Assembly (NCBI GenBank): GCA_050949175.1
Contig: JBMNFG010000011.1
Location: 329,549 to 393,548, forward strand
Source of the DNA: Bacillota bacterium
GTDB taxonomy: Bacteria > Bacillota > SHA-98 > UBA4971
Direction: 5' to 3'
Length of the DNA: 64,000 nt
The notes below the pieces were generated by a model, which saw only the letters and a program-made list of their open reading frames with translations, ran no database searches and was not told the DNA's origin. The translations under genes were made by a program, and so were the position numbers. Positions 23,688-54,003 of this stretch are shown one piece after another (the stretch's first letter is position 1; each line of letters begins with the position of its first letter).

Positions 23688-23693
23688 ACTGAT

Positions 23694-23880
23694 AATAGTC
23701 AGAACAACCCTATAATCGGATTCAATAGTTCGAACAACGTATGAGTTGATTTACCAGTTCGAACAACCTCACAAGTTCACTTAATAGCTATAACAACCCT
23801 ACGAGTTCATTCAACAGTCCCGACAGCCCTATAGGTTCATTTGACAGTTTGACAGTTAGAACAACCCTATAAGCTCATTC
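23694..23880. repeat. 30-bp tandem repeat (5 copies plus the gene copy) matching the 3' end of hppA
   Basis: Units such as aatagctataacaaccctacgagttcattc match the gene end gacagttagaacaaccctataagctcattc. Confidence 0.85.
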
Positions 23881-25893
23881 AAATGTACAATCAACGGAGC
23901 GAAAACAAGGGCTACAACAGTCATCAACTTAATCAGGATGTTCATAGCCGGTGCGGCAGCATCCTTAAAGGGGTCTCCTACCGTATCACCGATCACTGCA
24001 GCCGCGTGTACAGGAGTTCCCTTGCCTCCAAGGTTTCCGGCTTCCACGTGTTTCTTGGCATTATCCCAGGCGCCGCCTGCATTGGCAAGCTGGATAGCCA
24101 AGGGCACACCGCTTGTCAATGACCCTGCCAGGACACCTCCCAGAGTTTCAGGGCCCAGAAATACCCCTACAGCAAGCGGAAGGAACACTGCCACAAGTCC
24201 GGGGGCCACCATTTCTCGAAGAGCAGCAGCAGTAGTTATGTCTACACACTTGGCATAATCCGCTCTCCCGGTACCGTCCATAAGACCGGGAATCTCGGCA
24301 AACTGCCTTCTGACTTCTTCAACTACCTTAAACGCAGCACGCCCCACAGCGCTCATGACTTCGGAAGCGAATATGTAAGGTACCATTGCACCTATCAGAA
24401 CCCCTGCCACAACTTTAGCGCTTAGCAGGTTTATAGCTTGAAGCTGCACTGCATGCACATATGCAAAGAACAGAGCAAGTGCTGTCAGGGCAGCGGACCC
24501 GATTGCAAAACCCTTGGCAATAGCTGCAGTAGTATTTCCCGCAGCATCCAGAGAGTCAGTCACTTCCCGAACTTGCGACGGCATATGACCCATCTCAGCA
24601 ATTCCGCCTGCATTATCTGATATAGGTCCGTACGCATCCACAGCTACAGTCATGCCTGTGGTAGAAAGCATTCCCACAGCTGCAATGGCTATGCCGTAGA
24701 AACCTGCTGTGTAATAGGAGATCAATGTTGAAAGAGCGATAAAGATAAGAGGAACTACCGTGCTCCGCATACTCAAAGCAAACCCGCTGATAATATTCGT
24801 AGCAGGCCCGGTAAGGCAAGTCTCAGCTAAATCCTCCACTGCCTTTCCGGATGTATACTTTTCAGCAATCCCTCCGATAACCATCCCTGCCAGGAGGCCG
24901 AAGAAGGCTGCCCAAAATACGCTGAGTTCACCGTAGTAATACTTGCTCAGGAAGAAAGCGCCGACAACAACTAATCCTGCGCTGACAAGCGTGCCATTGC
25001 GCAAAGCGCCTCCCGGATCTCCTTCGGTTTTTCCGGTTCTTACAAAGAATGTTCCGATGATCGATGAGATAATGCCGATCCCTGCCAAACAGAGGGCAAA
25101 TATGATCTTCTTGAAGCCGTCAGGAGCGTTGAGGCTGGTTGCCGTAGCAATAACAAGCGCAGATACAATCGCCCCAATATAAGACTCGTAAAGGTCGGCT
25201 CCCATTCCTGCTACGTCCCCTACATTATCACCTACAAGGTCAGCGATGACCGCAGGGTTTCTAGGGTCATCTTCAGGAATGCCTTTCTCTACTTTACCGA
25301 CGAGGTCTGCACCGACATCTGCCGCTTTTGTGTATATGCCCCCTGCAACCCTTGCGAACAACGCCACAAGGCTCGCGCCCATACTGAACCCTGATATCAA
25401 ATCTGTCGCAGAGAACACATCTCCGCCAGGCAAGACCGACAATATGTAGTACACAATAGACAAAGAAAACAGCCCTATGCTGGCTACATACATTCCCATA
25501 ACCGCGCCGCCGGGAAAGGCCACTCTAAGGGCTTCATTGAAACCGTCTGCTGCAGCGTGGGCAGTCCTGCTGTTAGCAGCTGTAGCTATCTTCATCCCCA
25601 CATATCCTGCAGAAACAGACGTTAATCCTCCTATTAAGAAAGCAATCGCGGTATGTACATTAATCGCAAACACTATAAGCAAGAAGATAACACCGATGAA
25701 AACCAGAACGACTCTGTACTCCCGCCTCAAGAAGGCCATTGCACCTTCATGTATGGCTCCTGATAATTCTTGTATTCTTGCACTGCCAGGATCTTTCTTT
25801 AGACACATACTGCACAAGATAGGCGACAAAAAGGAGCCCTAAACCGCCTGCTAAGGCCGCGTACAAAATAGAAGACGCACCGATGGATGTCAT
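23856..25893 (-). CDS. hppA: Membrane-bound K+-dependent (probably Na+-pumping) pyrophosphatase, with one extra base near codon 31
   Basis: [42 protein letters not shown]; an upstream ATG at 25893 with RBS encodes TM1 in a different frame. Confidence 0.88.
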
Positions 25894-26039
25894 ACACTAC
25901 TCACCTCTAAAATTATTAGACCGTAACGGAAGATATGGCGAACTATATTACAAAGATTGCATCGTACCCGTCCTTAAGAGACAACATCTGCTGCATCTAT
26001 TTTTTTCTTTTCCTTGCACGTCAAATAGGCGAGCAATAT

Positions 26040-26261
26040 TTATCTTATGATACTCAGCAACACTGAGGACATCAAGAAAAGTACGGCTACGACAGAAGTC
26101 ATCTTGCTCAAAAACTCTTCCATTTTTTTGTTCTTGGAGAAAAATAACCGTCCCCCACCGCCGATGGACCCTAGTCCTTCGCCTTTACTTGGTTGAAGGA
26201 GCACTACAGCGATAAGAGCTATGGATATGACGAATTGAAATACTATAAGACCTGTGCGCAA
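26040..26261 (-). CDS. secG: Preprotein translocase subunit SecG
   Basis: VLLQPSKGEGLGSIGGG flanked by two TM helices; lies downstream of eno. Confidence 0.93.
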   Translation of the reverse strand: MRTGLIVFQFVISIALIAVVLLQPSKGEGLGSIGGGGRLFFSKNKKMEEFLSKMTSVVAVLFLMSSVLLSIIR

Positions 26262-26593
26262 TGAAGCTTCACCCCCAATACTTTCAACTCAGCAAGAAAA
26301 CCCTTCAGCAAACTATCATAGATTCTAGCACACGCCGCCAAACTCAGCAAGGCACTGTCGGGACTACCATGTAGTACACTTCAAAATATTAGGAGGTTGC
26401 CCTTATGGAGATTATATCACAAAAGCAGGGGAAAAAGCAGTCATTTAAGTGGAACGAAGCTAAAGAATTAGACGATTTTGACATATGTAACCATACTACA
26501 AAACCACGGAGTGTAGAGGAAAAACAGCAAGGCGCTGCCTACTTTAGCTAGCTTAAAGAGACAGCGCCGGAGTCGGTGCCGTGATTTGTTTGT

Positions 26594-26637
26594 AACCTAC
26601 AAAAGAGATCTTCGCAACCTACAAAAGAGATCTTCGC
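26594..26637. repeat. Perfect 22-bp tandem duplication
   Basis: aacctacaaaagagatcttcgc twice. Confidence 0.85.
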
Positions 26638-26723
26638 CCGATCTATAACCAATCTTCTTTTAGAATTCGCCTAAGAAAAAGACAGCAAATCCACGTACAA
26701 CTTATTGGAAACACAGCCTAAAT

Positions 26724-28022
<1,299 letters not shown>

Positions 28023-28772
28023 CTAAGCTTTGACTATAGCCGCAAAATCAGATGCACTTAGACTGGCGCCTCCTACAAGGGCCCCATCTATGTCTGACTG
28101 ACTGAACAGTTCTCCTGCGTTATTAGGCTTCACACTTCCGCCGTACTGAATCCTCATCTCATGGGCAATCTTGGGGTCAAATATTTCAGCTACAACACTT
28201 CGGATAATCCGGATCACCCTGTTTGCCTCTTCAGCCGACGCAGTGCGCCCTGTCCCTATTGCCCAGACAGGCTCATAAGCTATGACAATACCTTCTGCCT
28301 GAGCAGCATCTATGCCGTCCAGCGCTCCTTTTGTCTGTCTTGTCACAACTTCCTCGGTCTTGCCTTCCTCCCGCACTTCCAAAGTCTCTCCGACGCAGAT
28401 AATGGGCAGAAGGCCACCGGCTAGAGCTGCTTTCACCTTTTTGTTTACAATCTCATCAGTTTCGCCGAAGTAAGCTCTTCTTTCAGAGTGTCCCAGGATC
28501 ACGTACGTGCATCCCAGATCCTTCAGCATGACAGGAGATACTTCCCCTGTATACGCCCCTTCATTCTCCCAATGCATATTCTGGGCTGCAAGCCTGATGT
28601 TACTACCTTGAATCGCATCGGCAACTGCACTAAGAGCGGTAAACGCAGGGCATACCACTATCTCTACATGGCTCACATCCTTTACCCGGCTCTTCAAGTC
28701 ATTAACCAGAGCAGTGGCTTCATCGACAGTCTTGTGCATTTTCCAGTTTCCTGCAACTATACGCTTGCGCAA
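28023..28772 (-). CDS. tpiA: Triosephosphate isomerase
   Basis: AGNWKM, GHSERR, AYEPVWAIGTG, YGGSVK. Confidence 0.99.
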   Translation of the reverse strand: MRKRIVAGNWKMHKTVDEATALVNDLKSRVKDVSHVEIVVCPAFTALSAVADAIQGSNIRLAAQNMHWENEGAYTGEVSPVMLKDLGCTYVILGHSERRAYFGETDEIVNKKVKAALAGGLLPIICVGETLEVREEGKTEEVVTRQTKGALDGIDAAQAEGIVIAYEPVWAIGTGRTASAEEANRVIRIIRSVVAEIFDPKIAHEMRIQYGGSVKPNNAGELFSQSDIDGALVGGASLSASDFAAIVKA

Positions 28773-28789
28773 ATGTCTCTCACCTCTAC

Positions 28790-29974
28790 CTATTTATCTT
28801 TCAGCGCAGCAACACCGGGAAGGACTTTGCCCTCAAGGAATTCCAAAGATGCGCCTCCTCCTGTGGAAACATGGGTCATTTTGTCTCCAAATCCCATTTC
28901 GGAGACAGCAGCAACTGAATCTCCACCGCCGACTATCGTCACTGCCTCCGATTCTGCGAGTGCCCTGGCAATCCGCCTGGTTCCTTCTGCGAACGGCTTC
29001 ATCTCGAAGACGCCCATTGGACCGTTCCATACCACTGTCTTGGCATCCGCGATCTCCCGGGCAAACAGGTCTCGCGTCTTCGGGCCGATATCCAGAGCTT
29101 GCCAGGAGGGAGGAATCTCGTCTATATCAACGACCTTAGTGTTTGCATCTTCTGCAAACTTGTCTGCTATCACTACGTCAACAGGCAGGAGGAATCTTAT
29201 CCCTTTAGTCTTTGCCTTCTCCATAAGCTCCCCGGCCAAACCTAAGCTGGCATCATCAACAATAGAATCGCCGATCTCAAGGCCTTTTGCCTTCAAGAAG
29301 GTATAAGCCATACCTCCGCCGATTATCAGCGAATCCACTTTTTCCATGAGATTTGAGATAACGCCTACCTTATCTTTGACCTTGGCACCACCTAGGATCG
29401 CAACGAAAGGCCTCTCAGGTTGAGACAGCGCCTTCCCCATGACTTCAATCTCTTTCTCCATAAGAAACCCGGCGACTCCGTCAACAAACTCTGCGACTCC
29501 GGCGGTGGATGCATGGGCACGGTGAGCAGTCCCGAATGCGTCATTTACATATATATCAGCCAAAGAGGCCAAAGCCCTGGCAAATGCCTCGTCATTGGCT
29601 TCTTCTTCCTTGTAGAACCTGAGATTCTCAAGGAGGATTACATCTCCGTCTTTCATAGCCAGGACCTCTGCTTCGACCTCCGCGCCAATGCAATCATCGA
29701 GCTTCTTGACTGGTTTCCCAAGCAGTTCTTCAAGCCTTTTTGCAACAGGAGCAAGGCTGAACTCTTCCTTCCGCTGTCCCTTCGGACGTCCAAGGTGGGA
29801 TGCAAGGATCACCCTTGCACCGCGCTCCAAAAGGTATTCAATGGTTGGAAGAGCAGATCTGATGCGCGTATCATCTGTAATGTTCCTTTCAGCATCTAAA
29901 GGGACATTAAAGTCTACTCTTACAAGTACACGCTTTCCCTTTACATCGATATCCCTTACCGTGGCCTTTGCCAT
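28790..29974 (-). CDS. pgk: Phosphoglycerate kinase
   Basis: [27 protein letters not shown]; start set at the ATG behind AGGAG. Confidence 0.98.
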
Positions 29975-30035
29975 AAACGCATCACACTCCTCGAGCACAT
30001 ATGGCTTAGACGACTGACATTATCAACAGCCCAGC

Positions 30036-32077
<2,042 letters not shown>

Positions 32078-32173
32078 TCATACAAACCTCTTTCGCACGA
32101 GCTAAAATGACATCCATCGAACCATTTAAACTGACACCCATCGAAAAATAGACAAAAACTGGGTTATTAGTGG

Positions 32174-32209
32174 GTCGCGATACGTCCCGCCATAGCTTAT
32201 ATTGTCCCG
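32174..32209 (-). promoter_or_regulatory. CggR operator
   Basis: Two direct CGGGAC repeats 20 bp apart upstream of cggR, matching the B. subtilis CGGGAC-N6-TGTC-N4-CGGGAC layout; the TGTC halves are divergent. Confidence 0.7.
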
Positions 32210-32281
32210 CTTCAGTCAAAATAAAAAGTGCCATATCTTCCTATAGTGTATTCGTTCCGGCACCTAAAATTCCTTCTGTTG

Positions 32282-33727
32282 CTAAGAAAATCTTTTTCTA
32301 AGTGTAGACGGAGCTATCCGCTCCTCTTCGCGATATTTCGCCACTGTCCTGCGGGAAATCATAATCCCTTTCTCCCGCAACATTTCGCTGATAGCCCTAT
32401 CGCTAAGGGGCTTATTTGGATCCTCGCCTTCAATTATCTCGCGGATCATCTTTTTCACGCTCTCGCTGGATGCCCCTTTACCGTATACTGTCGGGATCCC
32501 GCTTGTGAAGAAGAACTTCAACTCAAACATGCCCCTTGGAGTTGCAACATACTTTCCTTGAGTAGCCCTGCTTACCGTAGATTCATGGACTCCAATCTCG
32601 CGGGCCACGTCCTCCAATGTCAGAGGCTTAAGATGCTTGACTCCTTTGTCAAAGAAGTCCCGCTGGAACTTGACAATGGATTCTATGACTTTTTGCAGGG
32701 TCTGCCTGCGCTGTTCTATGCTTCGTATAAGCCACAGAGCCGAATTAAGCTTGGATTTCAGGTAATCTACAGCACCGTCCTGTTGTGGATCCACTTGCCC
32801 CAGAATTTTGCGGTAGACCGGGTTTATGCTAAGGCGCGGAGCGGACACATCGTGAACAGTGACAACATATTCATCTCCGACTCTCTCAATACTTGCATCA
32901 GGTTCAATATATGCAGGCCCACGTCCGCCTGAATACTGCCGTCCCGGCTTCGGGTCGAGAGTCTTTATTAAATCGCACGCCTCCTGAACTTCAACAACAT
33001 CGACTCCCAAAGCCTCGGCAATCTTAACAAAACCGCCCTGCGCTATATCGTCCAGGTGTTCCTTAATCAATCTCTCTGCCAGTTCCAACTTATCACAGGA
33101 AATGCCGGTGCTCCTTAAAGACTCCAACTGGATTAGGAGACACTCCTCAAGGGTCCTGGCACCGACACCGGTGGGGTCAAACTGCTGGATTATGCTGAGG
33201 ACCTTTGCTGCTTCTTCAGGAGAAACGCCTGCCATATCTGCAATTTCAGAAATGTCCATCCGCAGGTAACCGTCGTCATCGATCCCGCCGATGATCAGAG
33301 CGCCTATTCTCATCCGGTCCTCGTCAAGGGGTGAAATACGCAGCTGAAACGTGAGATAATCATGGAATGTCGACTCGGAGCCTATGAAAGATTCATATGA
33401 TGGCTCAGGCTGATTCCGGTTTACCCGTGAACCTATGTACCCGATATCACTGGCATCTTCAAAATAGAGTTGCCAGTCTATATCATGACGCGCTTCTTCT
33501 GCTTCATTGGCAGACAACCCGGCCTCTTCACGGACGTCAGATAAATCCTGGCCTGCCGGCTCGACTTTGTCTCCGAGCTCCAGAAACGGGTTTTCCATTA
33601 CCTCTTCAGATATGTACTGTTCCAGCTCGATCCAGGGCAACTGAAGAATGGTTATGGCCTGACGAAGCTCAGGAGTAATAACAAGCTTCTGAACTTGCTT
33701 AAGGCTCATCTCATAACCAAGCTTCAC
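32282..33727 (-). CDS. rpoN: RNA polymerase sigma-54 factor
   Basis: ITPELRQAITILQL, HESTVSRA, RpoN box SRRTVAKYRE. Confidence 0.98.
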   Translation of the reverse strand: MKLGYEMSLKQVQKLVITPELRQAITILQLPWIELEQYISEEVMENPFLELGDKVEPAGQDLSDVREEAGLSANEAEEARHDIDWQLYFEDASDIGYIGSRVNRNQPEPSYESFIGSESTFHDYLTFQLRISPLDEDRMRIGALIIGGIDDDGYLRMDISEIADMAGVSPEEAAKVLSIIQQFDPTGVGARTLEECLLIQLESLRSTGISCDKLELAERLIKEHLDDIAQGGFVKIAEALGVDVVEVQEACDLIKTLDPKPGRQYSGGRGPAYIEPDASIERVGDEYVVTVHDVSAPRLSINPVYRKILGQVDPQQDGAVDYLKSKLNSALWLIRSIEQRRQTLQKVIESIVKFQRDFFDKGVKHLKPLTLEDVAREIGVHESTVSRATQGKYVATPRGMFELKFFFTSGIPTVYGKGASSESVKKMIREIIEGEDPNKPLSDRAISEMLREKGIMISRRTVAKYREEERIAPSTLRKRFS

Positions 33728-33800
33728 TGAATGTCACCCCTTTACGTTACAATATTCGAGAAGACCGAAGGATTTCCTTTGTAGAATCCTCCTAGGAAAT

Positions 33801-34748
33801 CTATCCCATTTTACCGTTTAAGCTGTTTGCTATATGGATAAGCCTCCTCATCCTGTGATTTACAGCAGATTTACTGATCGGGGGAGATAACAACTGACCC
33901 AGTTCCCTGAGGGTCATCTCAGGATTGGCTAACCTGAGTTCCGCTATCTCCTGAAGTCCCGGAGCAAGGGACTTTAGCCCAATGATCCGCTCAATTCTCT
34001 GTATGGCATCTATCTGGGAAAGACCTGCATTCACTGCCTTTGTGACATTTGCGGTCTCGCAGTTTACAACTCGGTTCACATCGCCGCGCACACCCCTCAG
34101 CACCCTCACACTTTCCAGCGTAAGCACTGCGGAGTGGGCTCCCATAACACGAAGCAGCTGAGCTACATCGTCCCCTCCCTTGACATAGACCATGTACCCC
34201 TTCTTGCGTGGCGCGACCTTAGGCGTTACGTTAAAGGATTCTGCTAGCTGCACTATTCCTTTTGCATGCTCTGAGCTATCTGTCATAAACTCCATATGGT
34301 ACTCTTTTTCAGGGTTTTGCACATATCCCCTTCCGAGAAAAACCCCTCGAAGGTAGGCTCTCCGGCAACACTGCCTGGATAGAAGGTGCCACGGGATACC
34401 GTTTTCCATAGAAATGCCGGAACCGCTCTCAGACATCACGCCAAGCCCTTTCAGTGTCTCCAGGGTCTTCTTACCAAGCAGCAGTTGGATGATATACTGG
34501 TTCCTTGAGCGTCCACCTTTTCCATGGATAAGTCTCATTCTTGGTTTGAAACCGAAGATAACGTTGACAAAAGACATTATCTTCCGGGCAGATGCAGCGT
34601 TTTCAGTTCGGATTTCAAAAACCGGCATCTCCAACCTGCCCAGACTCCTGGCAATTGCCGAAAACTCTGAGAGCTTACAACATTTGCTTTCAGGCATCGT
34701 GCGTGCAAGCTCGCCTTTTGTCTCTGTATAGAACATTCCTGGCACCAC
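33801..34748 (-). CDS. whiA: DNA-binding protein WhiA
   Basis: RAYLRGVF, NRVVNCETAN, ISKSAVNHRMRRL. Confidence 0.95.
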   Translation of the reverse strand: MVPGMFYTETKGELARTMPESKCCKLSEFSAIARSLGRLEMPVFEIRTENAASARKIMSFVNVIFGFKPRMRLIHGKGGRSRNQYIIQLLLGKKTLETLKGLGVMSESGSGISMENGIPWHLLSRQCCRRAYLRGVFLGRGYVQNPEKEYHMEFMTDSSEHAKGIVQLAESFNVTPKVAPRKKGYMVYVKGGDDVAQLLRVMGAHSAVLTLESVRVLRGVRGDVNRVVNCETANVTKAVNAGLSQIDAIQRIERIIGLKSLAPGLQEIAELRLANPEMTLRELGQLLSPPISKSAVNHRMRRLIHIANSLNGKMG

Positions 34749-34896
34749 CTAAGCTAATTCTATCACACGGCAACGGATCTCTTATATAGTCATAATCTGC
34801 CTCGCCTTCGGAATATAGGTATGTACGATGCAGCCTGTACAAGGCTTTGCTGGTTGGATACCTACGAATCAGCTAGGCTATCTCGCTTAATGGAGG

Positions 34897-35481: not shown

Positions 35482-35509
35482 GGATCATCAATCAAAGGAG
35501 AGAGAGATT

Positions 35510-37292: not shown

Positions 37293-37305
37293 TATAGTGA
37301 CTCTC

Positions 37306-38187: not shown

Positions 38188-38272
38188 AGCCAGATCCCTC
38201 CGCCTGTTGCCGGCATTCAGTCGGTCACAATCGACAACACGAGTCCCGGTCGAACAGTGTAGTTTAACACTT

Positions 38273-39055: not shown

Positions 39056-39112
39056 GCTGTCGCCTCCTATCGAAGCTTCAAGCCAGATTCCGTGGAAAAC
39101 TCAAACGTCACT

Positions 39113-40309: not shown

Positions 40310-40321
40310 ACGCGACCTCCT

Positions 40322-41314: not shown

Positions 41315-41316
41315 CC

Positions 41317-42051: not shown

Positions 42052-42158
42052 TCAGTTACTATCCTCCTCGACCCGGGGTAATGCGCCTGGGCCGGCGCTT
42101 GGCCCGGGAACACCATCCCAGGCGAAGAGATTCAACACTTCGTCCGGAATCCCTGCCA

Positions 42159-43805: not shown

Positions 43806-43958
43806 TTTTTTGTCCTCCTTTCCAGAATGGAACATATTTAGTGTAAGTCATAAGCCCAGACAGTATTCCGATGGTATAAACCTGCACAGCAGTAGAGATA
43901 TTATTACAGAGGTGTCCGCTTAGAAATGTCCACACAATTCAGTGGGGAGGTAACCTGA

Positions 43959-44918
43959 TTGCCGAAATTGGAAAACACAAGTGAAAATAGCCTCAGCCAA
44001 GGCACCGGCCCCTCTGAGCCGGTGGAAATCAGCATCTCACAGACTATCCCTGAGATTGAAGTCATTGAGCCTCGCGAATTACACGTCGGAGAACCCCCTA
44101 TCGAATTCCGCGGAACCCCGGAAGACAAGTGGGAGAGTCACTATGAGCTTCCCATTGGGTATGGTTCTACCAGGCTTGTTTTGATGGTCCGTGACCCTTA
44201 TTGGATCCACGCGTATTGGGAGATCGCTGAAGATATTTCAGATATCGTAACGACGGAATTGGGGCCGCAAGGATGGTCTACTTCCAGACGAGTCCTTCGA
44301 GTGCATGATGTGACCGATATTGAATTTGACGGCAACAACTCCCACAGATGTATGGATATTGACATCGGAGATGTCGCCACAAACTGGTACATAAACGTTG
44401 ACCGGCCTAACCGATCATACTGTGCAGAACTGGGACTCATGGGGCCCGACGGCAGATTTGTATGCTTGTCCAGGTCTAACACAGTCAGGACTCCCAGGGC
44501 AGGCGTTTCAGAAATCATTGATGAAGAGTGGATGACGATCTCAGCCATAGAAAGGTACTATTCCAAACCTACCGCAAGCCCGGCATCACCTGAAATAATC
44601 TCTGCCATATCTGAAAGAATGCACCTGGACGTAGGCTCAGAATTTGTCAGTGAGATTTCCAGCCCGGGAATGGCAAAGCAGCCGCCGGCAAAGGAGTTTT
44701 GGCTGAATGCACTTGTAGAAGTGATAATCTACGGCTCCACTCAGCCTGACGCACATCTTACGGTTGGAGGACAACCTGTCAAGCTTCGCCCGGACGGATC
44801 TTTCCATGTCAGATACGCCCTGCCTGACGGGGAGAAAATCATAGATATCAAGGCAGTATCGAAAGATGCCTCCATGAATCGGTCGATTACTACAAGACTC
44901 ACCCGTAGTACATGGTAA
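43959..44918 (+). CDS. DUF4912-domain protein
   Basis: ELPIGYG, LMVRDPYWIHAYWE, SNTVRTP; C-terminal IYGSTQPDA beta domain. Confidence 0.85.
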   Translation: MPKLENTSENSLSQGTGPSEPVEISISQTIPEIEVIEPRELHVGEPPIEFRGTPEDKWESHYELPIGYGSTRLVLMVRDPYWIHAYWEIAEDISDIVTTELGPQGWSTSRRVLRVHDVTDIEFDGNNSHRCMDIDIGDVATNWYINVDRPNRSYCAELGLMGPDGRFVCLSRSNTVRTPRAGVSEIIDEEWMTISAIERYYSKPTASPASPEIISAISERMHLDVGSEFVSEISSPGMAKQPPAKEFWLNALVEVIIYGSTQPDAHLTVGGQPVKLRPDGSFHVRYALPDGEKIIDIKAVSKDASMNRSITTRLTRSTW

Positions 44919-44990
44919 AACCGGAACAGCACCTGGTAATTCCAACCTGTTATTCACCGGTATTCAGAAATAAGGAGATGGATCTGGAAG

Positions 44991-46583
44991 ATGGGATGCG
45001 AAAAAGGTTACCTTGCTATTGTCCTTCACGCCCACTTGCCGTTTATAAGACACCCGGAGCATCCGGATTTTTTTGAGGAGACCTGGCTTTATGAAGCCAT
45101 TACAGAGACGTACATTCCGCTTATAAAGGTCTTTAAGCGCCTGGCTGACGAAGGGATAAGATATCGAATAACAATGTCTCTTACTCCGCCGCTAGCATGT
45201 ATGCTCCAGGACAGCCTTCTACAGGAGCGGTACCTTCGCCATATAGAACGCCTTATTGAGCTTGCAGAAAAGGAAATCGAACGCACCCGCTGGCTCCCGG
45301 AGTTTCATAAGAATGCCGTTATGTACCTGGAGAAATTCCGCGAAGCCAGGCGTGTATTCTTAGATGAATATCAATGCAACCTGGTGACCGCATTTGCTGA
45401 ACTACAGGACAGGGGTTGCCTGGAGCTTATCACTTCGTGTGCAACCCACGGCTATCTTCCTCTTATGGAAATATGCCGCGAAGCAGTGCGTGCTCAGATA
45501 AAGATAGCAGTTGACTACTACAGAAAGCGCTTTAACCGTGATTCGCCCGGTTTCTGGCTTCCTGAATGCGGCTTTAACCCCGGTGATGATGAGCACTTGA
45601 AACAGGAAGGCATAAGGTATTTCATACTGGACTCTCACGGAGTGCTGTTCGCGTCCCCTCAGCCAAAGTACGGGGTGTTTGCACCTGTATACTGCAGGTC
45701 CGGAGTGGCTGCCTTCGGCAGGGATATGGAATCATCGAAGCAGGTTTGGAGCGCACGGGAAGGATATCCGGGAGACTATGATTACAGGGAGTTTTACCGG
45801 GACATCGGATATGATCTGGACTACGAATACATAAAACCGTATATCCACTCGAGCGGAGCTCGGATCAGCACAGGAATAAAGTATTACAGGATCACCGGAA
45901 AGACCCATGACAAACAGCCTTACGACAGGGAACGCGCACTGAGAAAAGCCGCGATCCATGCCGGGAACTTTATGTTCAACAGAGAAAGGCAGATTGAGTA
46001 TCTCGCATCTGTAATGGACAGAAAGCCAATCGTGGTCGCACCGTACGACGCAGAGCTCTTCGGGCACTGGTGGTTTGAAGGGCCTGAGTGGCTCGATTAC
46101 CTGATACGAAAAGTCACCTATGACCAGAATATATTCAAGTTGATTACGCCAGGAGATTACTTGGACATATATAAGCGCAACCAGGTATCGACACCGTCCT
46201 TGTCCAGCTGGGGGTATAAGGGCTATAATGAGGTCTGGCTGGAAGGTTCCAACGACTGGATCTATCCTCACCTTCATAAAGCAGCTGAAAGAATGGTGGA
46301 GCTGGCCAAAGCCTATCCTTCAACAGACGGCCTGAGGAGGCGCGCCTTAAACCAGGCAGCCAGGGAGCTGCTGCTTGCTCAGAGCAGCGATTGGGCTTTC
46401 ATCATGAAGACAGGGACTGTGGTCCCGTATGCGGTAAGGCGCACCAAAGAGCACCTGTGGCGCTTTACAAAGCTCTATGAAGATATCCGGCGGGATTCCA
46501 TTGACGAAGGCTGGCTTTCGGAGATGGAATACAGAAACAACATCTTTCCTGAGATAGACTACAGTGTCTATGCTAAAGCTTAA
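44991..46583 (+). CDS. GH57 1,4-alpha-glucan branching enzyme-like (DUF1957), paralogue 2
   Basis: LHAHLPF, WLPECG, APYDAELFGHWWFEG, AQSSDWAF. Confidence 0.92.
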   Translation: MGCEKGYLAIVLHAHLPFIRHPEHPDFFEETWLYEAITETYIPLIKVFKRLADEGIRYRITMSLTPPLACMLQDSLLQERYLRHIERLIELAEKEIERTRWLPEFHKNAVMYLEKFREARRVFLDEYQCNLVTAFAELQDRGCLELITSCATHGYLPLMEICREAVRAQIKIAVDYYRKRFNRDSPGFWLPECGFNPGDDEHLKQEGIRYFILDSHGVLFASPQPKYGVFAPVYCRSGVAAFGRDMESSKQVWSAREGYPGDYDYREFYRDIGYDLDYEYIKPYIHSSGARISTGIKYYRITGKTHDKQPYDRERALRKAAIHAGNFMFNRERQIEYLASVMDRKPIVVAPYDAELFGHWWFEGPEWLDYLIRKVTYDQNIFKLITPGDYLDIYKRNQVSTPSLSSWGYKGYNEVWLEGSNDWIYPHLHKAAERMVELAKAYPSTDGLRRRALNQAARELLLAQSSDWAFIMKTGTVVPYAVRRTKEHLWRFTKLYEDIRRDSIDEGWLSEMEYRNNIFPEIDYSVYAKA

Positions 46584-46660
46584 GCACTGTGAGCGCTCGA
46601 TGTCTATACAAGGGCTTTAAGCACTGTAATCGATCTATGTCTATGCCAAGACTTGAGCAC
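46565..46660. repeat. Three copies (36-37 bp period) of the GH57 stop-codon region
   Basis: tgtctatgctaaagcttaagcac at 46565, variants at 46601 and 46638. Confidence 0.8.
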
Positions 46661-46731
46661 AAAAGACGACCGCGGAATGCCACAAGACCCAGTAAAGTCT
46701 CCGGTACGTGCCGCTCTGTTCTTATCTTCGA

Positions 46732-49212
46732 TTAGATCGTCCCGATCTCCATAATACGGTTCATGTAAGCTTCTCGCAGCGCTTCTGCCTCGTCCGGACT
46801 GGAAGCCTCACTGTAGATGTGGAAGAGCGGCTCTTCCGAATCAGGCAGAACCAATGCCCAGCCTTTTTCGTGGTAAACCTTAATACCGTCTATAAGCTCC
46901 ACTTGCTTGGTGCGGGTCTCATTAATGAGAGTCCTCATTACCTTGCCTTTAGCTTCCCAGGGACATTCCACGCTGCGCTTGCTGATATAAAATTCAGGAA
47001 CCATGGAAACCAATTCTGAAAGCCTGATGCTGTCCCGTGCCATGGTCTCCAGGATCTTTCCAAGAGAAAAGAGGGCGTCAAAAGGCGCCTGAAATCCCGG
47101 GAGGCCTTTTTCTCCTATGAAGATCTTTTCTTCAATAGCCTTCTCCATAACTGACCTGGGATTGGCTCGGGTGCGGACTACGCGTCCCCGGTATCTTCTG
47201 GCCATTTCCTCGATAATTCGCGAAGCTGTAACAGGCACTGCCACAGTAGCGCCTTCCCTGGATTTCAGGACAAGAAGGGACATTAAGGCTGTGAACAGGT
47301 CCTCAGACACCCTGTTGCCTTTTTCATCAACCAGGAGAAGCCTTTCTGCATTGCTGTCAACGATTATTCCGAGATCCGCCTGCTGAACAACGACGGACTT
47401 TGCAAGAAACGATAGAGAATCCAGCATATCCAGGAGGTGTCTTGGCCCTTGTTCTGCATTGCTTTCCCTGTCTGACGTAGATACAGTGCAACCCAGCGCA
47501 GAAAGGAAAGACGGCAGGAGCAAAGAGAGGTTGCCGGGGTCGTAATCTACAACGACTTTAAACTGCTTCTCTCTTATCACATCTACGGAGATGGTCTCGA
47601 GGAGACAGTCTAAGTACTCTTCCATAAGGCGGGTTAGAAAAGCCACTTCCCCGATATCGTCCGGGCTTACCCTGGTAAAGTCCTCGCTGAAGAAGGCATT
47701 CTCGATTCTTCGTTCAGTGGCTTTATCGATATTCATGCCTTTATCGTCAAGGAATTCGATTAAGGCGATATCCGGGTCATAGGGAGAAAGCCGCACGTGC
47801 AGGCCCCCTGCAACTCCCAGGGCTGTAACGGCGTACCGAGTCACAGGTGTGGTGGTACGGCCAACATCGTAGACAGCTGCACCGCCTGAGAGAAGGCCTG
47901 ATGTCAGTGCCCGCTTTATCATCCGGGAAGGCTTGTACGCATCTGAGCTTATAACCACCTGACGCCTCTCTTTGAAGCATGAGCTGTAAGCTGCCCCTAA
48001 TTTGGCTGCGATTTCGGGAGTAAGCTCCACGTTGACAAGGCCTGAGACTCCATACGTCCCGAACAACCGCTTGGACCATTTAGCCCCCCACACCAAGCTT
48101 GTGGTAATGGTTGTGCCTGCGTCAATAACCTTTTCAGGCCATATCTTTACGCCGGGCTTGATAACGGAGCTGCCGCCTACTACAGAGCGAGACCCAATGA
48201 TAGATCCTTCAAATACCGCTGTCTTTGCCTTGAGGCTTACTTTGCTGCAGACGATAGCCCCCCTTAGTTCAGTGTCCTTCCCGAAGAAGGAGTCATCCCA
48301 GAGCACGCTGCGTTTTGCGGAAGCACCGTCGTTTAGGATATTATTGTGTCCGATGACCGTGCTTGAGCCGATCTCCACACCTCGCCTGATACGGCAGAAA
48401 TCTCCGATTATAACAGGGGCATCAAGCTTTGCGCTTGGATGGATTTCAGTGCCTCTTCCTATGTAGATGCCTTTTGCGATTTCTTCTCCCGGAATTCTGA
48501 CGCGTACTAATCCTTGGAGGATATCATAATGGGTCTGGCGGTACTGGTCGATATTACCCACATCACTCCAGTAGCCCTGGGCTACATATCCAAAGAGAGG
48601 CAGGCCTTTCTTTAGAATAAGCGGAAACAGGTTCTTGCTGAAGTCAAACTCAACGCCCGGGTCAAAGAGACGCAACACATCCGGTTCCAGCACATAGATG
48701 CCGGTATTCACCGTATCGCTGAATACCTCGCTCCAACTGGGCTTCTCAAGGAACCTTGTAATGCGGCCGTCATCGTCGGTGATTACGACCCCGTATTCCA
48801 GCGGGCTTGTAACGCGAGTCAGGACGATTGTGGCGATTGCCCCTTTAGCTTTGTGAAACTCCACAGCTTCAGTTAAGTTGATATCTGTCAGCGCATCTCC
48901 TGAGATCACGAGGAAGGTTGAATCCAGCAGGTGTTCACATGCTTTGACACTTCCTGCTGTGCCAAGGGGTGTATCTTCAACAGCGTAATCCATGGAGACT
49001 CCGAATCTTTCTCCTTGGCCGAAGTAGTCCATGATTACTTCCGGCATGTAGTAAAGTGTGGCGAGGATATCGCAGAACCCGTGAAGTTTCAGAAGGTCAA
49101 TGACATGCTCCAGCATGGGGCGGTTCACCACCGGCACCATGGGCTTCGGCCTGTCACATGTAAGAGGTCTAAGCCTTGTCCCTTTTCCGCCTGCCATCAC
49201 TACCGCCTTCAA
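46732..49212 (-). CDS. Sugar-1-phosphate nucleotidyltransferase + hexapeptide (LbH) + phosphomannomutase-like fusion
   Basis: MAGGKGTRLRPLT, FLEKP, YWSDVG, hexapeptide repeats, then an LFGTYG PGM/PMM-type domain. Confidence 0.9.
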   Translation of the reverse strand: MKAVVMAGGKGTRLRPLTCDRPKPMVPVVNRPMLEHVIDLLKLHGFCDILATLYYMPEVIMDYFGQGERFGVSMDYAVEDTPLGTAGSVKACEHLLDSTFLVISGDALTDINLTEAVEFHKAKGAIATIVLTRVTSPLEYGVVITDDDGRITRFLEKPSWSEVFSDTVNTGIYVLEPDVLRLFDPGVEFDFSKNLFPLILKKGLPLFGYVAQGYWSDVGNIDQYRQTHYDILQGLVRVRIPGEEIAKGIYIGRGTEIHPSAKLDAPVIIGDFCRIRRGVEIGSSTVIGHNNILNDGASAKRSVLWDDSFFGKDTELRGAIVCSKVSLKAKTAVFEGSIIGSRSVVGGSSVIKPGVKIWPEKVIDAGTTITTSLVWGAKWSKRLFGTYGVSGLVNVELTPEIAAKLGAAYSSCFKERRQVVISSDAYKPSRMIKRALTSGLLSGGAAVYDVGRTTTPVTRYAVTALGVAGGLHVRLSPYDPDIALIEFLDDKGMNIDKATERRIENAFFSEDFTRVSPDDIGEVAFLTRLMEEYLDCLLETISVDVIREKQFKVVVDYDPGNLSLLLPSFLSALGCTVSTSDRESNAEQGPRHLLDMLDSLSFLAKSVVVQQADLGIIVDSNAERLLLVDEKGNRVSEDLFTALMSLLVLKSREGATVAVPVTASRIIEEMARRYRGRVVRTRANPRSVMEKAIEEKIFIGEKGLPGFQAPFDALFSLGKILETMARDSIRLSELVSMVPEFYISKRSVECPWEAKGKVMRTLINETRTKQVELIDGIKVYHEKGWALVLPDSEEPLFHIYSEASSPDEAEALREAYMNRIMEIGTI

Positions 49213-49285
49213 AGGAATCCTGCCTCCTTTTCTCTGCGCTGCCTCGTTGATAGTGTGTCGCTCGCTCGTGTCGCAGTCGCACTAA

Positions 49286-50569
49286 CTAGCCGCTGTTGTG
49301 CGCAAAGTATCGGGAATACTCGCGAGAATACTCGTGCGGGACAGCCTCCTGCGCCTGAAAGATCCACCTCGGCCTAGTTACCGCCCACGGACTTGCCCTG
49401 TATGCCTTAAGGACTTCGTCGTAAACCCGAGACGTGGATTCAGCTATTATGTCCCAGTTAAACTTAGTTAGAACATCATGTGTTGCATTGGCACGGATTT
49501 CGTCGCACAAGCGCTTGTCTGCAAGGAGGGTTAGGATATTATCCGCAAGTGAACTGGGGTTACCGGGGTAGCATTTCATGCCTGTAACCCCGTGTCTGAC
49601 TACTTCTCCTAACCCTCCTACATCTGAAACCACAACCGGAGTCCCTGATGCCATGGCCTCCAGCGCAGTTATGCCAAAGGGTTCATAGAGGCTGGGCACA
49701 CAGGCCACGTCTGCACACTTATAGAGCTTATTGCGAGTTGGATCATCGACAAACCCTGCGAAGTAAACCCTGTTGTAGATGCCCAGATTGCCGGCATATT
49801 CTTTTAGATATGCATCAGCAGGGCCTTTGCCCGCGACAACCAGTTTAACCTTGTCCCTGTAAGCAAGGACTTTGCAGAACGCATCGAGAAGGACATGGAC
49901 CCCTTTCTCATGCACCAGCCTGCCTATGAAGAAGATCATCTGCTCATCAGGTGCAGCCCATCTTGAACGAAAAGCAACAAGGTCCTCGCCTTCAGGCACT
50001 TGAAACCTGGTTGGGTCTACCCCGTTGGGGATTTGGCGCAGTTTATCTCCGGGAAGCTGAAAGATCCATGATAACTCGCGGCGCATGTGCTCACTGCAGC
50101 ATATGACACGCCACGATTCGAACCCCAGCCACCACTCGACATTACTGATGTAGCGCTGCAGATCATTGTGAAGGCCCCAATTCCGGCCGTATTCCGTGGC
50201 ATGAATTGTACCGACTAAAGGAATGTTAAAAGCATGTTTCAATGCTTTCCCGGCGTAGGCAACTATCCAATCATGTGCGTGCACAAGATCCGCACCCATA
50301 GCAGCCCGTTCAATCCCGCGCTCCATAAGGTTCAGGTTCATCTGCATGACCCAGGTGAGAAAGTCAGGAGGAGAAGGATTGTGAAAAGGAACTCTGAACA
50401 CCCGGACCCCTTCGTCATCCTCTTCTTCGCAGGCATTACTGTGGCCGCAGGTGATAACATCAACATCCACTCCCTGCTTAACCAGGGCTTTCGAAAGGTC
50501 CTCCACATGCCTGGCTATTCCCCCGACCACCCTCGGCGGATACTCCCAGGAAAGCATAATCACGTGCAC
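49286..50569 (-). CDS. GT4-family glycosyltransferase
   Basis: SWEYPPRVVGG, HAHDW, GRLVHEKG, YEPFGITALEAMA. Confidence 0.92.
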   Translation of the reverse strand: MHVIMLSWEYPPRVVGGIARHVEDLSKALVKQGVDVDVITCGHSNACEEEDDEGVRVFRVPFHNPSPPDFLTWVMQMNLNLMERGIERAAMGADLVHAHDWIVAYAGKALKHAFNIPLVGTIHATEYGRNWGLHNDLQRYISNVEWWLGFESWRVICCSEHMRRELSWIFQLPGDKLRQIPNGVDPTRFQVPEGEDLVAFRSRWAAPDEQMIFFIGRLVHEKGVHVLLDAFCKVLAYRDKVKLVVAGKGPADAYLKEYAGNLGIYNRVYFAGFVDDPTRNKLYKCADVACVPSLYEPFGITALEAMASGTPVVVSDVGGLGEVVRHGVTGMKCYPGNPSSLADNILTLLADKRLCDEIRANATHDVLTKFNWDIIAESTSRVYDEVLKAYRASPWAVTRPRWIFQAQEAVPHEYSREYSRYFAHNSG

Positions 50570-50584
50570 TGTATCTCCTCCTTT

Positions 50585-51395
50585 AATGAGCCGCTACGCC
50601 GCTAATAGCCCGCTAATACGCTGCTAATAGCCAGCTGGTTAACTGCGAATAGAGTGCCAAAGATTGCTGTAGACTGCTAGCTGCTAACAGACCGGTAATA
50701 GACGGCTAACAAACCGCTGTTAAACTGCTAACCGACTGCTGACAGATGGCTAACGGACTGCAAAAAGACTGCTAATCGCCCAGTAATGGCCTACCAATAG
50801 GCCTCTTGTGGCCTCTAGCAGGCCGGTAACGGACTGCTGACAGACCGCTAACGGACTGCTGACAGACTGCTAACGGACTGCTGATACCCTACTAATAGGC
50901 GCCTAATGAACCGCCGGCAGACCGGTGACAAGCCGCTGTTAGACTGCTAACGGCAACCTGAGAGACTGCTATCGGACTGCTAATAGCCTACTCATAGGCC
51001 ACTAATGTCCTCCAGCAGGCCGGTAACCGACTGCTGACGAACTGCTAACGACCTGATGATAGACTGCTCATAGCCTACTGATAGTCTCCTAATGAGCCTC
51101 TAGTAGACGGTCAACAGACTGGTGACACATTGCTAACGACCTGCTAATAGATTGCTAACAGGCTCCTAATCAGCGGCTAGCGAACCGGTAATGGACTGCT
51201 GACAGATTGCTAATGGCCTGCTAATGGCCTGCTGCCAGACTGTTAACGACCTGCTAATAGACTACTCATAGCATACCAATAGGCTCCTAATCAGTCGGCA
51301 GTAGGCCGGCAATGAACTGCTGATAGACTCCTTATACACTCAAGGTAAACCGGTAGGGAACCGGTCATAGGCCTCCAATCGACTGCTCATAGACT
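50585..51395. repeat. About 800 bp 11-bp-period minisatellite (GACTGCTAAYR) with higher-order blocks
   Basis: Example run gactgctgaca-gaccgctaacg-gactgctgaca-gactgctaacg; no ORF of 60 aa or more in the track. Confidence 0.88.
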
Positions 51396-51701
51396 ACAAG
51401 ATGTTTTCTGGCCTCAACGGATACCGACACCCGACATCTTTGCAAACTAAGGAAATCTCATAATACCGACTACTACGGCAGATACAAATCGATGCCTTGA
51501 CCTCGGTATGCATTGCCACCTATCCTACGGTCCTTACCACCTCCGGCACCTTCGACAGCGCAGACCATACCTGTTAACTCCCAGCAAGGATAGATGCATC
51601 TCCTGCTTTGTCCAGGTGTACAGATACCCTAGGTGGCTCTGGAAGAGCACGCCTGTTCTTAGGATTTACTCCAAGTCAGGAATTATTCGTAAGTCAGCCC
51701 T

Positions 51702-52240
51702 GTGGTCGAGAATCGCCCACCATTTGGCTGTTTGATGGCAGTTTTTCTACCACAGTTTTGAGCGTAAGCTCTAAAATGGTAGAGTCTCGCCCACCAAGAG
51801 GCTCAAGGGTGGAAGGTTTTCTACCATGATCAGGCGTTAAGGTGGTAGGATATCGACCACCACGCCTCCCAAAATCTTACACATCACGGTTTGGTGGTCG
51901 AAACTCGCCCACATTTTCTGAAAAAGTGGGCGAAAAACTGCCACATTTTCCAAAAACGTGGTAGGAATTCTACCACCTGAGCCTCAAAAAGCTCCCAAAA
52001 CCGGGCTCCAACCTGAAAATGTGGTCGATTCTCTACCGCCTGAGGCAGTTTGGGTGGTTCAAAATCGTCCATTTATGAACGTTTGCTCGAAAAAATCCAA
52101 AAGGGTGGTCGAAATTGAACCACCTTTTTAAGGAAATGTGGCTCAAAATCGCCCATTTATGAGCGTTTGCTCAAAAAAACCGCAAAGAGTAGCCGAAATT
52201 GGTCCACGTTGTCTGCAAACGGTGGTTCAATTTCGATAAC
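51702..52240. repeat. Phased palindrome array, copy 2: 14 units, same orientation as copy 1
   Basis: Units start at 51702, 51735, 51776, 51809, 51842, 51894, 51926, 51958, 52021, 52054, 52105, 52138, 52189 and 52222; spacers align with copy 1. Confidence 0.9.
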
Positions 52241-52284
52241 CGTTCTTAGCTAGATTTGTTTTTGAACGGTTGAGTCAGAGTCCG

Positions 52285-52620
52285 GGTAAAAAAAGCAGCA
52301 AAATCAACAGGAAAGACAGCACAAAATGGAATATCAGAATGCCACAGAACAGACCTCAAAAGAGGCAACAGAAGAAGCAAAAGAAAGAAGCAGGACAGGC
52401 GCCGGAAGATAGAATATGAGAACGCCACCGAAGAGCCAGCAGACGAGATCTTAGAAGAAGCAACAGGAGAAAGAGCAGAAGATAGGAGCAGGAAAGGCTC
52501 TGGAAGATAGAGTACAAGAACGCACAGAACAGGCACCGAAAGAAGGAGCGAAAGAAAGAACAGAAGACAGAGCAGCAGAAAGAACTGAAGGAAGAGCAGG
52601 CGAAAGAAGGGAAACCGTCA
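52285..52620. repeat. Purine-rich (A/G) low-complexity tract with roughly 12-bp periodicity
   Basis: aagaacagaagacagagcagcagaaagaactgaagg-like runs; very few T on the + strand. Confidence 0.6.
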
Positions 52621-52720
52621 GCTAGTCGTAAAGATGGCCGACTAGTCGTAAAGATGGCCAACTAGACGTAAAGATAGCCAACCGGCCGTAAAGATAGCCA
52701 ACTAGGTGTATAGATGGCAG
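52621..52720. repeat. 20-bp tandem repeat (4 copies plus the gene copy) matching the 3' end of oppD
   Basis: actagtcgtaaagatggcca-type units followed in register by actaggtgtatagatggcag, which contains the stop codon. Confidence 0.85.
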
Positions 52721-53778
52721 CGGACTTTGCGTCCGTCATCCATTGTGACAAAAGGCGGCTCAATATTGAAGCACACAGAGTGAGCATCCTTGCAGCGCGG
52801 TGTAAAGCTGCACCCAGGAGGAAGATTGGTAAGGTCGGGAACCTCGCCTTCTACAGGAACAAGTTCGCGCCTCTGGCCTATCTGGGGAATCGATCTTAGA
52901 AGGCCTTGAGTATAAGGATGAAGCGGCGAAGTAAGCACATCGTCGATATCTCCCGACTCTACGATTTGGCCTGCGTACATCACGGCAGCTTTGTGACAGA
53001 ATTCCGCTGCAACGCCCAGGTCATGGGTGACAAGGATTATCGCTGTCCCAAGCTCTTCATTAATCTCACGCATCAAATCCAGCACCTGCGCCTGAACTGT
53101 GACGTCCAAAGCAGTGGTGGGTTCGTCGGCCAGTATAACCTTAGGCCTGCACGCAAGGGCAATAGCAATGAGGATGCGCTGCTGCATCCCACCGCTGAAC
53201 TGATGGGGATACTCCAGATGCCTGTGCTCCGGAGAAGGTATCCCCACCTGCCTTAGAAGGTTCACCACCAGTTCCCGCTCTTTCTCGCGCTCATCACGCC
53301 GAAGGCGCCTGAGAAACCCCGGCAGCAGCCCGTGAACACGAAGAGACTCCGAAATCTGCTCCCCCACTCGGTAAGCAGGGTTCAGGGTCGTCATAGGATC
53401 CTGGAAAACCATTGCGATATCTTTTCCTCGCACGTCCCGCATTTCTGCTTCAGACAGAGTCAGAAGTTCCCTTCCTTCAAACTTAACAGACCCGTTGACA
53501 ATCCGCCCCGGACGAGGGACAAGCCGCATTATCGAAAGCAGGCATGCGCTCTTACCGCAGCCTGATTCTCCCACAATCGCCAGGATGTCGCCTTTCGCTA
53601 ACACAAGGTCGACATTACGCACAGCGCGGACAGTCCCTCGAGGAGTTGGATACTCGGTAGACAGCCCGGAGACCTCAAGGACCCAAGGAGTTTCAGGAGA
53701 CTGTTCATTGTGAGTTGATTTCCCAGATTCAGCTCCGATCAAAGCTCGATGTTTAGTTCGTTTGTTTAGGGTGTCCAT
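52702..53778 (-). CDS. oppD: Oligopeptide/dipeptide ABC ATP-binding protein (OppD/DppD)
   Basis: [31 protein letters not shown]-terminal Cys motif. Confidence 0.92.
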   Translation of the reverse strand: MDTLNKRTKHRALIGAESGKSTHNEQSPETPWVLEVSGLSTEYPTPRGTVRAVRNVDLVLAKGDILAIVGESGCGKSACLLSIMRLVPRPGRIVNGSVKFEGRELLTLSEAEMRDVRGKDIAMVFQDPMTTLNPAYRVGEQISESLRVHGLLPGFLRRLRRDEREKERELVVNLLRQVGIPSPEHRHLEYPHQFSGGMQQRILIAIALACRPKVILADEPTTALDVTVQAQVLDLMREINEELGTAIILVTHDLGVAAEFCHKAAVMYAGQIVESGDIDDVLTSPLHPYTQGLLRSIPQIGQRRELVPVEGEVPDLTNLPPGCSFTPRCKDAHSVCFNIEPPFVTMDDGRKVRCHLYT

Positions 53779-53784
53779 CTGATA

Positions 53785-54003
53785 ACCTCCCTGTTAACCC
53801 TCCTGTTAACGGTCCTGTTGTCCCTCCCGTTAACCGTCCTGTTAACGCTCCTATTAACTCTCCCGCTGACTGTCCGGTTAACCGTCCTGTTAACTGTCAC
53901 TGTCCGTTAACCGCCCTGTTGACCCTCCTGTCAACCGTCCTGTTAATCCTTCTGTTAACCCGCGTGTTGATCCTCCTGTTAACCCTCGCGCTAACCCTCC
54001 TGC
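53785..54003. repeat. 12-bp tandem repeat (about 18 copies), minus strand CAGGAGGGTTAA, matching the oppC end
   Basis: cctgttaaccct units run from the oppC stop (CAG GAG GGT TAG) to the oppD RBS. Confidence 0.88.

Follow-up and report, generated by a model that had tools for sequence, protein, structure and literature searches.

In the stretch of Bacillota DNA analysed here, hereafter the window (64,000 nucleotides, G000:C11:329549-393548), four genes, namely hppA, a GH57 (branching-enzyme) gene, oppD, and oppC, run at their 3' ends into tandem arrays in which the gene-proximal unit is the end of the gene itself, stop codon included, and degenerate copies of that unit extend downstream. This pattern is real and confirmed at the four genes, and the same anatomy is found at dozens of genes throughout the genome, with units of 10 to 141 bp. 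The arrays are probably locus-specific minisatellites that arise by ordinary local tandem duplication and are filtered by selection, and the genome-wide counts favour the view that tolerance of duplications at stop codons suffices to produce the pattern, a mechanism focused at stops not being required.

The source genome (G000) comprises 2.01 Mb in 14 contigs, with approximately 49.5% G+C and a completeness of 92%. The nearest named relative of the hppA of the window belongs to an uncultured Bacillota metagenome-assembled genome (MAG), with 77% identity, and almost identical DNA was recovered in 14 DNA runs belonging to seven or more studies of anaerobic digesters and sludge. Genes were called with a home-made procedure based on codon log-odds, greedy selection, and the longest start, with no ribosome-binding-site model, which gave 1665 genes and 84% coding sequence; start positions are approximate, which could only raise the number of arrays counted as overlapping a start. 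Tandem Repeats Finder (TRF) was run at a score of 30 in the window and at a score of at least 40 genome-wide, where 512 rows were merged into 375 arrays covering 29.8 kb. Contigs C10 and C14, and also C5 and C8, share duplicated stretches, and a few arrays are counted twice. Identical arrays lie on these contig pairs (C10:3017-10739 versus C14:48948-56670, and C5:22074/42813 versus C8:926/8632), the duplicated stretches being several kb long and representing either real repeats or redundancy in the assembly. The relatives used for comparison are fragmented MAGs, sampled in part.

Arrays derived from the ends of four genes

The arrays at hppA, GH57, oppD, and oppC are present where a reading of the sequence alone had placed them, with the stop codon inside the proximal unit and a periodicity that shuffled sequence does not attain (Table 1). 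When the autocorrelation of each array at its unit length was tested against 500 shuffles, the oppD array (0.79 at lag 20) and the oppC array (0.67 at lag 12) lay above all 500, and the values of the hppA array (0.51 at lag 30) and the GH57 array (0.48 at lag 37) were reached by none. TRF reported the oppD array as 52622-52718 (20 bp x 4.8, 84%) and the oppC array as 53779-54002 (12 bp x 18.2, also 48 bp x 4.6), and missed in the window those of hppA and GH57, which are more decayed. The downstream copies of the 30-mer at the end of hppA match it at 21, 24, 23, and 25 of 30 positions. At oppC, the unit formed by the last codons and the stop also bears the Shine–Dalgarno (SD) motif of oppD, each copy containing a stop and an SD-like GGAGG/GAGGG motif. 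A weaker 11-bp case, claimed near 7300-7410 downstream of an ABC ATPase gene, is not a gene-end copy, as two small arrays are located there, beginning 9 and 62 nt past the stop codon (7315-17), and neither contains it.

Since an open reading frame (ORF) entering a pre-existing array rich in TAA and TAG would likewise end in the first unit, orthologues were compared in order to establish which came first. The oppD product ends in ..GRKVRCHLYT followed by the stop in G000 and, identically, in the congeners G004 and G005, which are devoid of the 20-bp array. The end of oppC is ..LQEG and stop in G000 versus ..LQEGQ and stop in G004 and G005, where the oppC stop immediately adjoins the start codon of oppD, the 212 nt present in G000 being an insertion. 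The GH57 end, ..VYAKA and stop, is kept with nearly the same nucleotides and no array in G007, G002, and G005, the array being missing from seven relatives, and the BE_C match in this gene reaches the end of the profile (101/101) at residue 527 of 530. Similarly, the hppA tail, ..HLNELIGLF and stop, is kept as HLN..G.F and stop in five congeners and in sequence L001, none of which has the array. Thus, what the proximal unit encodes is the native C-terminus, shared at the four genes with 3-6 congeners in which there is no array, so that the gene end is the source and the arrays are derived from it, which bears out the proposal that one terminal unit is the true gene end with its stop and that the degenerate copies lie downstream.

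Congener G004 has gene-end arrays of its own. At oppB, an array of 31 bp x 5 (L082, G004:C118, 3589-3746) starts in the native gene end ..NPKMTL and stop, and at oppD an array of 66 bp x 4.2 (1153-1427) has a diverged first unit that spans the oppD stop, with an alignment score of 29 versus a shuffle maximum of 26 in 300 shuffles. The units of both arrays are unrelated to those of G000, with no detectable homology; for the two arrays located after oppD, homology was rejected at a local alignment score of 23 versus a shuffle maximum of 28, and these arrays would be either independent or decayed past recognition. This recurrence of gene-end arrays with unrelated units supports the interpretation as locus-specific minisatellites.

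Contigs from three DNA runs of three studies were aligned to positions 46000-54500, which include the GH57, 11-bp, oppD, and oppC arrays, that of hppA lying outside. In all three runs, contigs bridge the GH57 array with 0-1 differences, the oppD array (contigs 52112-53277/53364) with 1-4 differences and no indels, and the 11-bp array, with 0-4 differences across the bridged arrays, and the oppC array is spanned, also without indels, through overlapping contigs. As one of the runs could be the source sample itself, the number of independent confirmations is two or more. An artefactual origin, through assembly errors or through ORFs running into pre-existing arrays until the first stop, could appeal to the fact that units rich in TAA and TAG would stop any frame entering them, but the contigs of independent studies reproduce the arrays and the proximal units encode native C-termini that are conserved in array-free congeners; this reading is already refuted for the four genes and has almost no probability left overall. 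Copy number, which the sequence-only reading had proposed to compare among strains and reads, showed no variation among the contigs of the three metagenomes over this region, whose arrays are old, within the limits of contigs, which drop rare variants. Contigs from an RNA library extend out of GH57 across its array (46000-46789) and also cross the oppD array (52088-52739), although transcription, strand, and level are not shown thereby. In the three DNA runs, the 5' part of oppD (53554-53812) exists in two versions at approximately equal depth, with 19-21 differing positions, only one of them being in the assembly; this could reflect a co-occurring strain or an unassembled second copy.

Table 1. 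Gene-end arrays, their genes, and other repeat features of the window (window positions)
Feature	Position	Strand	Description
hppA (H+-pyrophosphatase)	23856..25829	-	Stop 23856-58; Pfam H_PPase, E 1.3e-258
hppA array	23694..23885	-	~6 copies of a 30-bp unit; the one next to the gene is the last ~8 hppA codons and stop
GH57/branching-enzyme gene	44991..46583	+	Stop 46581-83; Pfam Glyco_hydro_57 and BE_C
GH57 array	46566..46660	+	~2.7 copies of a 36-37 bp unit, the first comprising the last 5 codons, stop, and 18 nt past it
oppD-like ABC ATPase	52702..53778	-	Stop 52702-04; Pfam ABC_tran and oligo_HPY
oppD array	52622..52721	-	5 copies of a 20-bp unit; the one next to the gene holds the last 4-5 oppD codons and TAG
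oppC-like permease	53991..54950	-	Stop 53991-93; Pfam BPD_transp_1 and OppC_N
oppC array	53779..54002	-	18 units of 12 bp (48-bp higher order); occupies the entire oppC-oppD spacer
Two small spacer arrays after ABC ATPase gene	7326..7404	+	7326-7354 (15 bp x 1.9) and 7379-7404 (11 bp x 2.4)
11-bp array	50595..51400		~800 nt; 22-, 33-, and 88-bp higher orders; TRF rows 50595-51263
~470-nt element copy	51720..52200	+	Terminator-like hairpins on the minus strand
~470-nt element copy adjoining hppA array	23184..23642	+	G000:C11:352732-353190; 87% identical to the 51720-52200 copy
Purine-rich degenerate repeats	52250..52610		Separate the 20-bp array from the element; 12/24 bp by TRF, ~80-100 bp by eye

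Tandem duplications around stop and start codons

Among the 375 arrays of the genome, 213 are intergenic and 105 lie within genes, with 44 spanning only a stop, 10 only a start, and 3 both, that is, 47 stop-spanning versus 13 start-spanning arrays. In spacers between co-directional genes, 113 arrays are closer to the stop and 65 closer to the start. A TRF-free test, which takes an 18-mer at the stop and searches the 150 nt downstream for an echo matching at 13/18 positions or more, found echoes in 33/1438 genes versus 9.8 in permuted gene pairs, and the matching test at start ends gave 18 versus 7.4. The number of stop-spanning arrays expected from geometry was obtained with a model in which arrays are collapsed to one unit, seeds of each array's own period are placed uniformly, and every seed is kept unless it falls wholly within a gene. 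If starts are tolerated, the model yields 35.3 stop-spanning and 35.3 start-spanning arrays, and if 40 to 80 nt upstream of starts are intolerant, it yields 48.4 to 53.6 stop-spanning arrays, to be compared with the 47 observed. The position of the stop within the unit is uniform (coding fraction of the unit, Kolmogorov–Smirnov p 0.32, n 44), as random seeds predict, and array edges are depleted within approximately 40 nt upstream of starts. Thus, uniform seeds, uniform placement of the stop, and depletion at starts fit the counts, tolerance being sufficient and targeting not needed, and the asymmetry between stops and starts stems mainly from depletion on the start side. The sequence-only reading had left it undecided whether duplication is focused at stops or only tolerated there, and had proposed a genome-wide comparison of stops with starts; the asymmetry it anticipated does exist, yet neutral geometry, with 35-54 modelled arrays, accounts for it, so that tolerance is favoured and focusing is not required.

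The sequence content of the arrays points in the same direction. The period is divisible by 3 in 82/105 in-gene arrays versus 83/213 spacer arrays, and SD-like 4-mers are depleted within array units. No match elsewhere in the genome was found for 214/270 non-genic arrays and for 43/47 stop-spanning arrays. The idea of a sequence-independent process of local duplication is upheld by this largely locus-unique sequence and by the absence of a strong k-mer signature in the units. Moreover, arrays of all ages are represented, with match levels of at least 95% in 34 arrays and below 70% in 16, and 42 arrays contain nested higher-order periods, as would be expected if slippage or unequal exchange recurred and the copies then decayed. 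An example of a young two-copy seed is seen in the window at 26594-26637, where a perfect 22-bp x 2.0 duplication lies 87 nt past the enolase stop.

According to the proposed mechanism, a segment of 10-140 bp would first be doubled through replication slippage or unequal exchange; slippage between copies, in some cases by several units at once, would then enlarge the array, and point mutation would decay the copies afterwards. Seeds would land regardless of sequence or translation signals, and selection would set which of them survive: within genes mainly in-frame units would persist, duplications upstream of starts would be purged, and a segment spanning a stop would be harmless, because the first copy leaves the gene intact and the extra copies fall past the stop. 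Where a genome is compact, a substantial fraction of the tolerated seeds would span a stop, giving rise to an apparent rule. At the oppC-oppD junction, the first unit would retain the stop of oppC and the last unit the ribosome-binding site of oppD.

Several more specific triggers found no support. The genome contains two MutS genes, MutL, RecJ, and XseA, and a mismatch-repair defect is not supported. Ku and RVT_1 (reverse transcriptase) were not found in the 92% complete genome, and neither non-homologous end joining nor reverse transcription is supported; the genes of these three routes are those that the sequence-only reading had suggested inspecting. A replication–transcription conflict is not indicated, as arrays occur at 22/271 lagging-strand genes versus 88/1265 leading-strand genes (8.1% versus 7.0%, p 0.52), with no difference in codon score. 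A sequence motif or restriction site as the trigger has in its favour just a weak excess of CTAG in the units (26 versus 13.4 expected), and a translated or coding origin of the spacer arrays is at odds with their lack of 3-periodicity (period classes 83/61/69). The arrays are not CRISPR arrays, since their units are abutting and degenerate, with no unique spacers between identical repeats, nor do they resemble the duplication of a gene 3' end at an integrase att site, as there are 3-18 contiguous copies with no intervening DNA, although an integrase itself was not searched for. As for known RNA families, Rfam matches in the window are limited to a tmRNA and a c-di-AMP riboswitch, neither of which overlaps an array. 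Immediately following smpB (21643-22101) is the tmRNA (21181-21540, minus strand), the two being separated by a 28-bp x 2 repeat (21556-21611), and the riboswitch occupies 58243-58387 on the minus strand.

Regional clustering, a dispersed element, and rival explanations

Some observations weigh against a plain process of local duplication and selection. Arrays are clustered along the genome, with an index of dispersion of 4.1 in 20-kb bins (p 2e-36), which a plain uniform process does not predict. Of the 93 bins, 20 are hot as regards purely intergenic arrays, and these contain 19% of the genes but 23/42 stop-spanning arrays (p 3e-7). Without copy-number variation in the three metagenomes, ongoing slippage is deduced from the graded ages of the arrays and not observed directly. 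Furthermore, the expected count hinges on a free parameter, namely the size of the intolerant zone upstream of starts, and on the home-made ORF caller. Finally, the edges of 18 arrays lie 0-5 nt before the stop (2.5 per kb of positions available) and those of 2 within 5 nt past it (0.31 per kb); this small residual excess leaves weak room for a process focused at stops.

The sequence-only reading mentioned neither the unevenness of duplication along the genome nor the fact that the richest spacers also hold a dispersed palindromic element. This element, of approximately 470 nt, is non-coding and shows imperfect palindromic 20-mers, a period of 83/84 bp, and terminator-like sites of hairpin plus T-run, with a single perfect 7-nt stem in the examined copy. 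Contig depth rises 30-60 fold across 51680-52247 relative to the flanks. The element has 30 matches in G000 (approximately 22 full copies, 83-92% identity), 23 in G004, and 40 in G007, versus 0-3 in four further congeners and no match among 13 genomes from other genera, and is, thus, genus-specific. It has no Rfam match at gathering score, and no Y1/RAYT (REP-associated tyrosine) transposase (PF01797) was found in G000, at 92% completeness. Approximately 12-13/21 copies, as judged by eye, are oriented one way relative to the upstream gene, with no clear bias.

Both spacers of the window that bear the element have the same order, namely gene stop, gene-end array, element, further arrays, and next gene. 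The spacer after oppD measures approximately 68 nt in G005 versus 2132 nt in G000, and the one between hppA and the HD gene (22734-23856) measures 1122 nt in G000 and is short in congeners, five of which have a conserved terminator hairpin and T-run approximately 60 nt past the hppA stop that was not found in G000. The purine-rich repeats between the 20-bp array and the element match nothing but themselves in the genome. The 11-bp array, the largest in the window, lies directly upstream of a glycosyltransferase start at 50569, unlinked to a stop, and its matches are confined to contig C11.

The element could drive local duplication by itself, with hairpins that stall forks or a mobilisation that damages the flanks, stop arrays being a by-product. 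Indeed, the 19 element-bearing spacers contain 2.10 arrays per kb outside the element versus 0.75 per kb elsewhere, and a stop-spanning array is present in 6/19 of them versus 40/1632 others (Fisher p 7e-6). TRF arrays lie beside 19/21 full copies, a 20th, that of hppA, adjoining the array missed by TRF, arrays and elements correlate per 20-kb bin (Spearman 0.59), and G004 has at the orthologous site after oppD both the element and an array at that stop, G005 and G001 having neither. Nevertheless, element-free spacers hold 207/243 arrays and 40/46 stop-spanning arrays, including the GH57 and oppC cases, and the arrays stay clustered once element-bearing spacers are left out (dispersion 2.57); therefore, the element is at most a contributor to array formation. 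The association could also reflect the accumulation of both where selection for compactness is weak. In addition, G004 has its 23 element matches yet only 4.5 arrays per 100 kb (12 arrays in a 269-kb sample, 1 at a stop and 1 at a start, too few for a comparison of stops with starts), and a transposase that could mobilise the element was not detected. Densities of 4.2 in G005 and 5.0 in G006, versus 18.7 in G000, come from 72-80 kb samples of fragmented MAGs and are only indicative. An element-driven origin of the stop arrays is, on this evidence, unlikely. A bolder version, also doubtful, would make the birth of minisatellites regional and linked to the element, in such a way that the element, or its mobiliser, destabilises replication or repair of the flanks and turns compact spacers of 0-200 nt into repeat jungles of 1-2 kb, the first array being copied from the nearest gene end; hence, independent arrays would recur at the same gene ends across species, such as oppD in G000 and G004.

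A mutational process focused at translation stops, for instance through ribosome release, uncoupling of RNA polymerase, R-loops, or fork stalling past the stop, would explain why array edges are densest 0-5 nt before the stop, in comparison with approximately 1.0-1.3 per kb at 5-40 nt downstream, and why arrays in co-directional spacers lean towards the stop. However, the total at stops equals the neutral expectation, the stop is uniform within the unit, the deficit on the start side accounts for the asymmetry, leading and lagging genes do not differ, codon score has no effect, and 213/375 arrays touch no gene end at all, which makes such a process very improbable. Selection for function, in which the arrays tune mRNA stability, termination, or translational coupling in 3' untranslated or intercistronic regions, is suggested by the stop-plus-SD units between oppC and oppD and by the identical copy number in three metagenomes, and RNA-library contigs that cross the GH57 and oppD arrays are compatible with it, although they do not prove transcription. 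On the other hand, the units are unrelated between loci, decayed to 60-80% identity, and absent at the same genes in congeners, no Rfam family matches the arrays, and spacer arrays have no reading-frame periodicity, so a selected function is quite improbable. Local tandem duplication filtered by selection, the reading preferred here, probably explains the arrays at the four genes and in the rest of the genome.

Significance and relation to known repeat systems

The genome offers an example of how selection may shape the places where tandem duplications persist in a compact genome, with stops acting as safe harbours, starts being protected, and in-gene duplications remaining mainly in frame. 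The geometric null model can serve as a yardstick for claims that repeats are targeted to gene ends. Moreover, repeat units after a gene can mimic alternative gene ends, which calls for caution in annotation, and spacers can expand ten-fold without a new gene, as illustrated by the one after oppD. The hot regions and their link to a palindromic element could yield something new on what triggers the birth of bacterial minisatellites. Word searches of open-access texts returned no description of gene-end-derived tandem arrays in prokaryotes, a result that leaves room for their existence elsewhere.

A survey of 5374 prokaryotic genomes found tandem repeats to be commoner upstream of starts and downstream of stops than in genes (PMC12418385, NAR 2025); the parts of that survey consulted describe no units made of a gene end plus stop, no neutral seed model, and no regional clustering. 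In Beggiatoaceae, intergenic TAACTGA direct repeats are abundant in spacers and their unit contains stop triplets (PMC4679880), which is one heptamer used genome-wide, in contrast to the locus-specific units of G000.

Repetitive extragenic palindromic sequences and bacterial interspersed mosaic elements (REP/BIME) are extragenic clusters of palindromic units in enterobacteria with a cognate RAYT (Y1 transposase). Only the ~470-nt element, and not the arrays, may resemble them, as it consists of dispersed, extragenic, imperfect palindromes with a period of approximately 84 bp, often located after gene ends; it differs from them in that its palindromes are mostly imperfect, with neither a RAYT/Y1 transposase detected in G000 nor an Rfam match at gathering score. 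Mycobacterial interspersed repetitive units (MIRUs) form a single dispersed family of apparently mobile sequences, inserted at start codons. The oppC-oppD array is similar to them in lying between operon genes with a stop and an SD motif per unit. In mycobacteria, these minisatellite-like units between operon genes are described as keeping the coupling of the flanking ORFs (PMC12548453). The arrays of G000 are unlike MIRUs in having a different unit at each locus, taken from the local gene end, and no single family occupies many loci.

The closest likeness is with bacterial minisatellites and variable-number tandem repeats (VNTRs), attributed to slipped-strand mispairing and unequal exchange, with which the arrays share head-to-tail units of 10-140 bp, locus specificity, higher-order periods, and a location mostly in spacers. 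Classical VNTRs vary in copy number between strains, whereas no variation was seen in the contigs of the three metagenomes over 46000-54500, and the arrays of G000 are mostly old and decayed. They are minisatellites in their abutting head-to-tail units and their locus-derived sequence, but show no VNTR behaviour in those contigs, and they differ from VNTRs in a genome-wide pattern of seeding from the 3' ends of genes.

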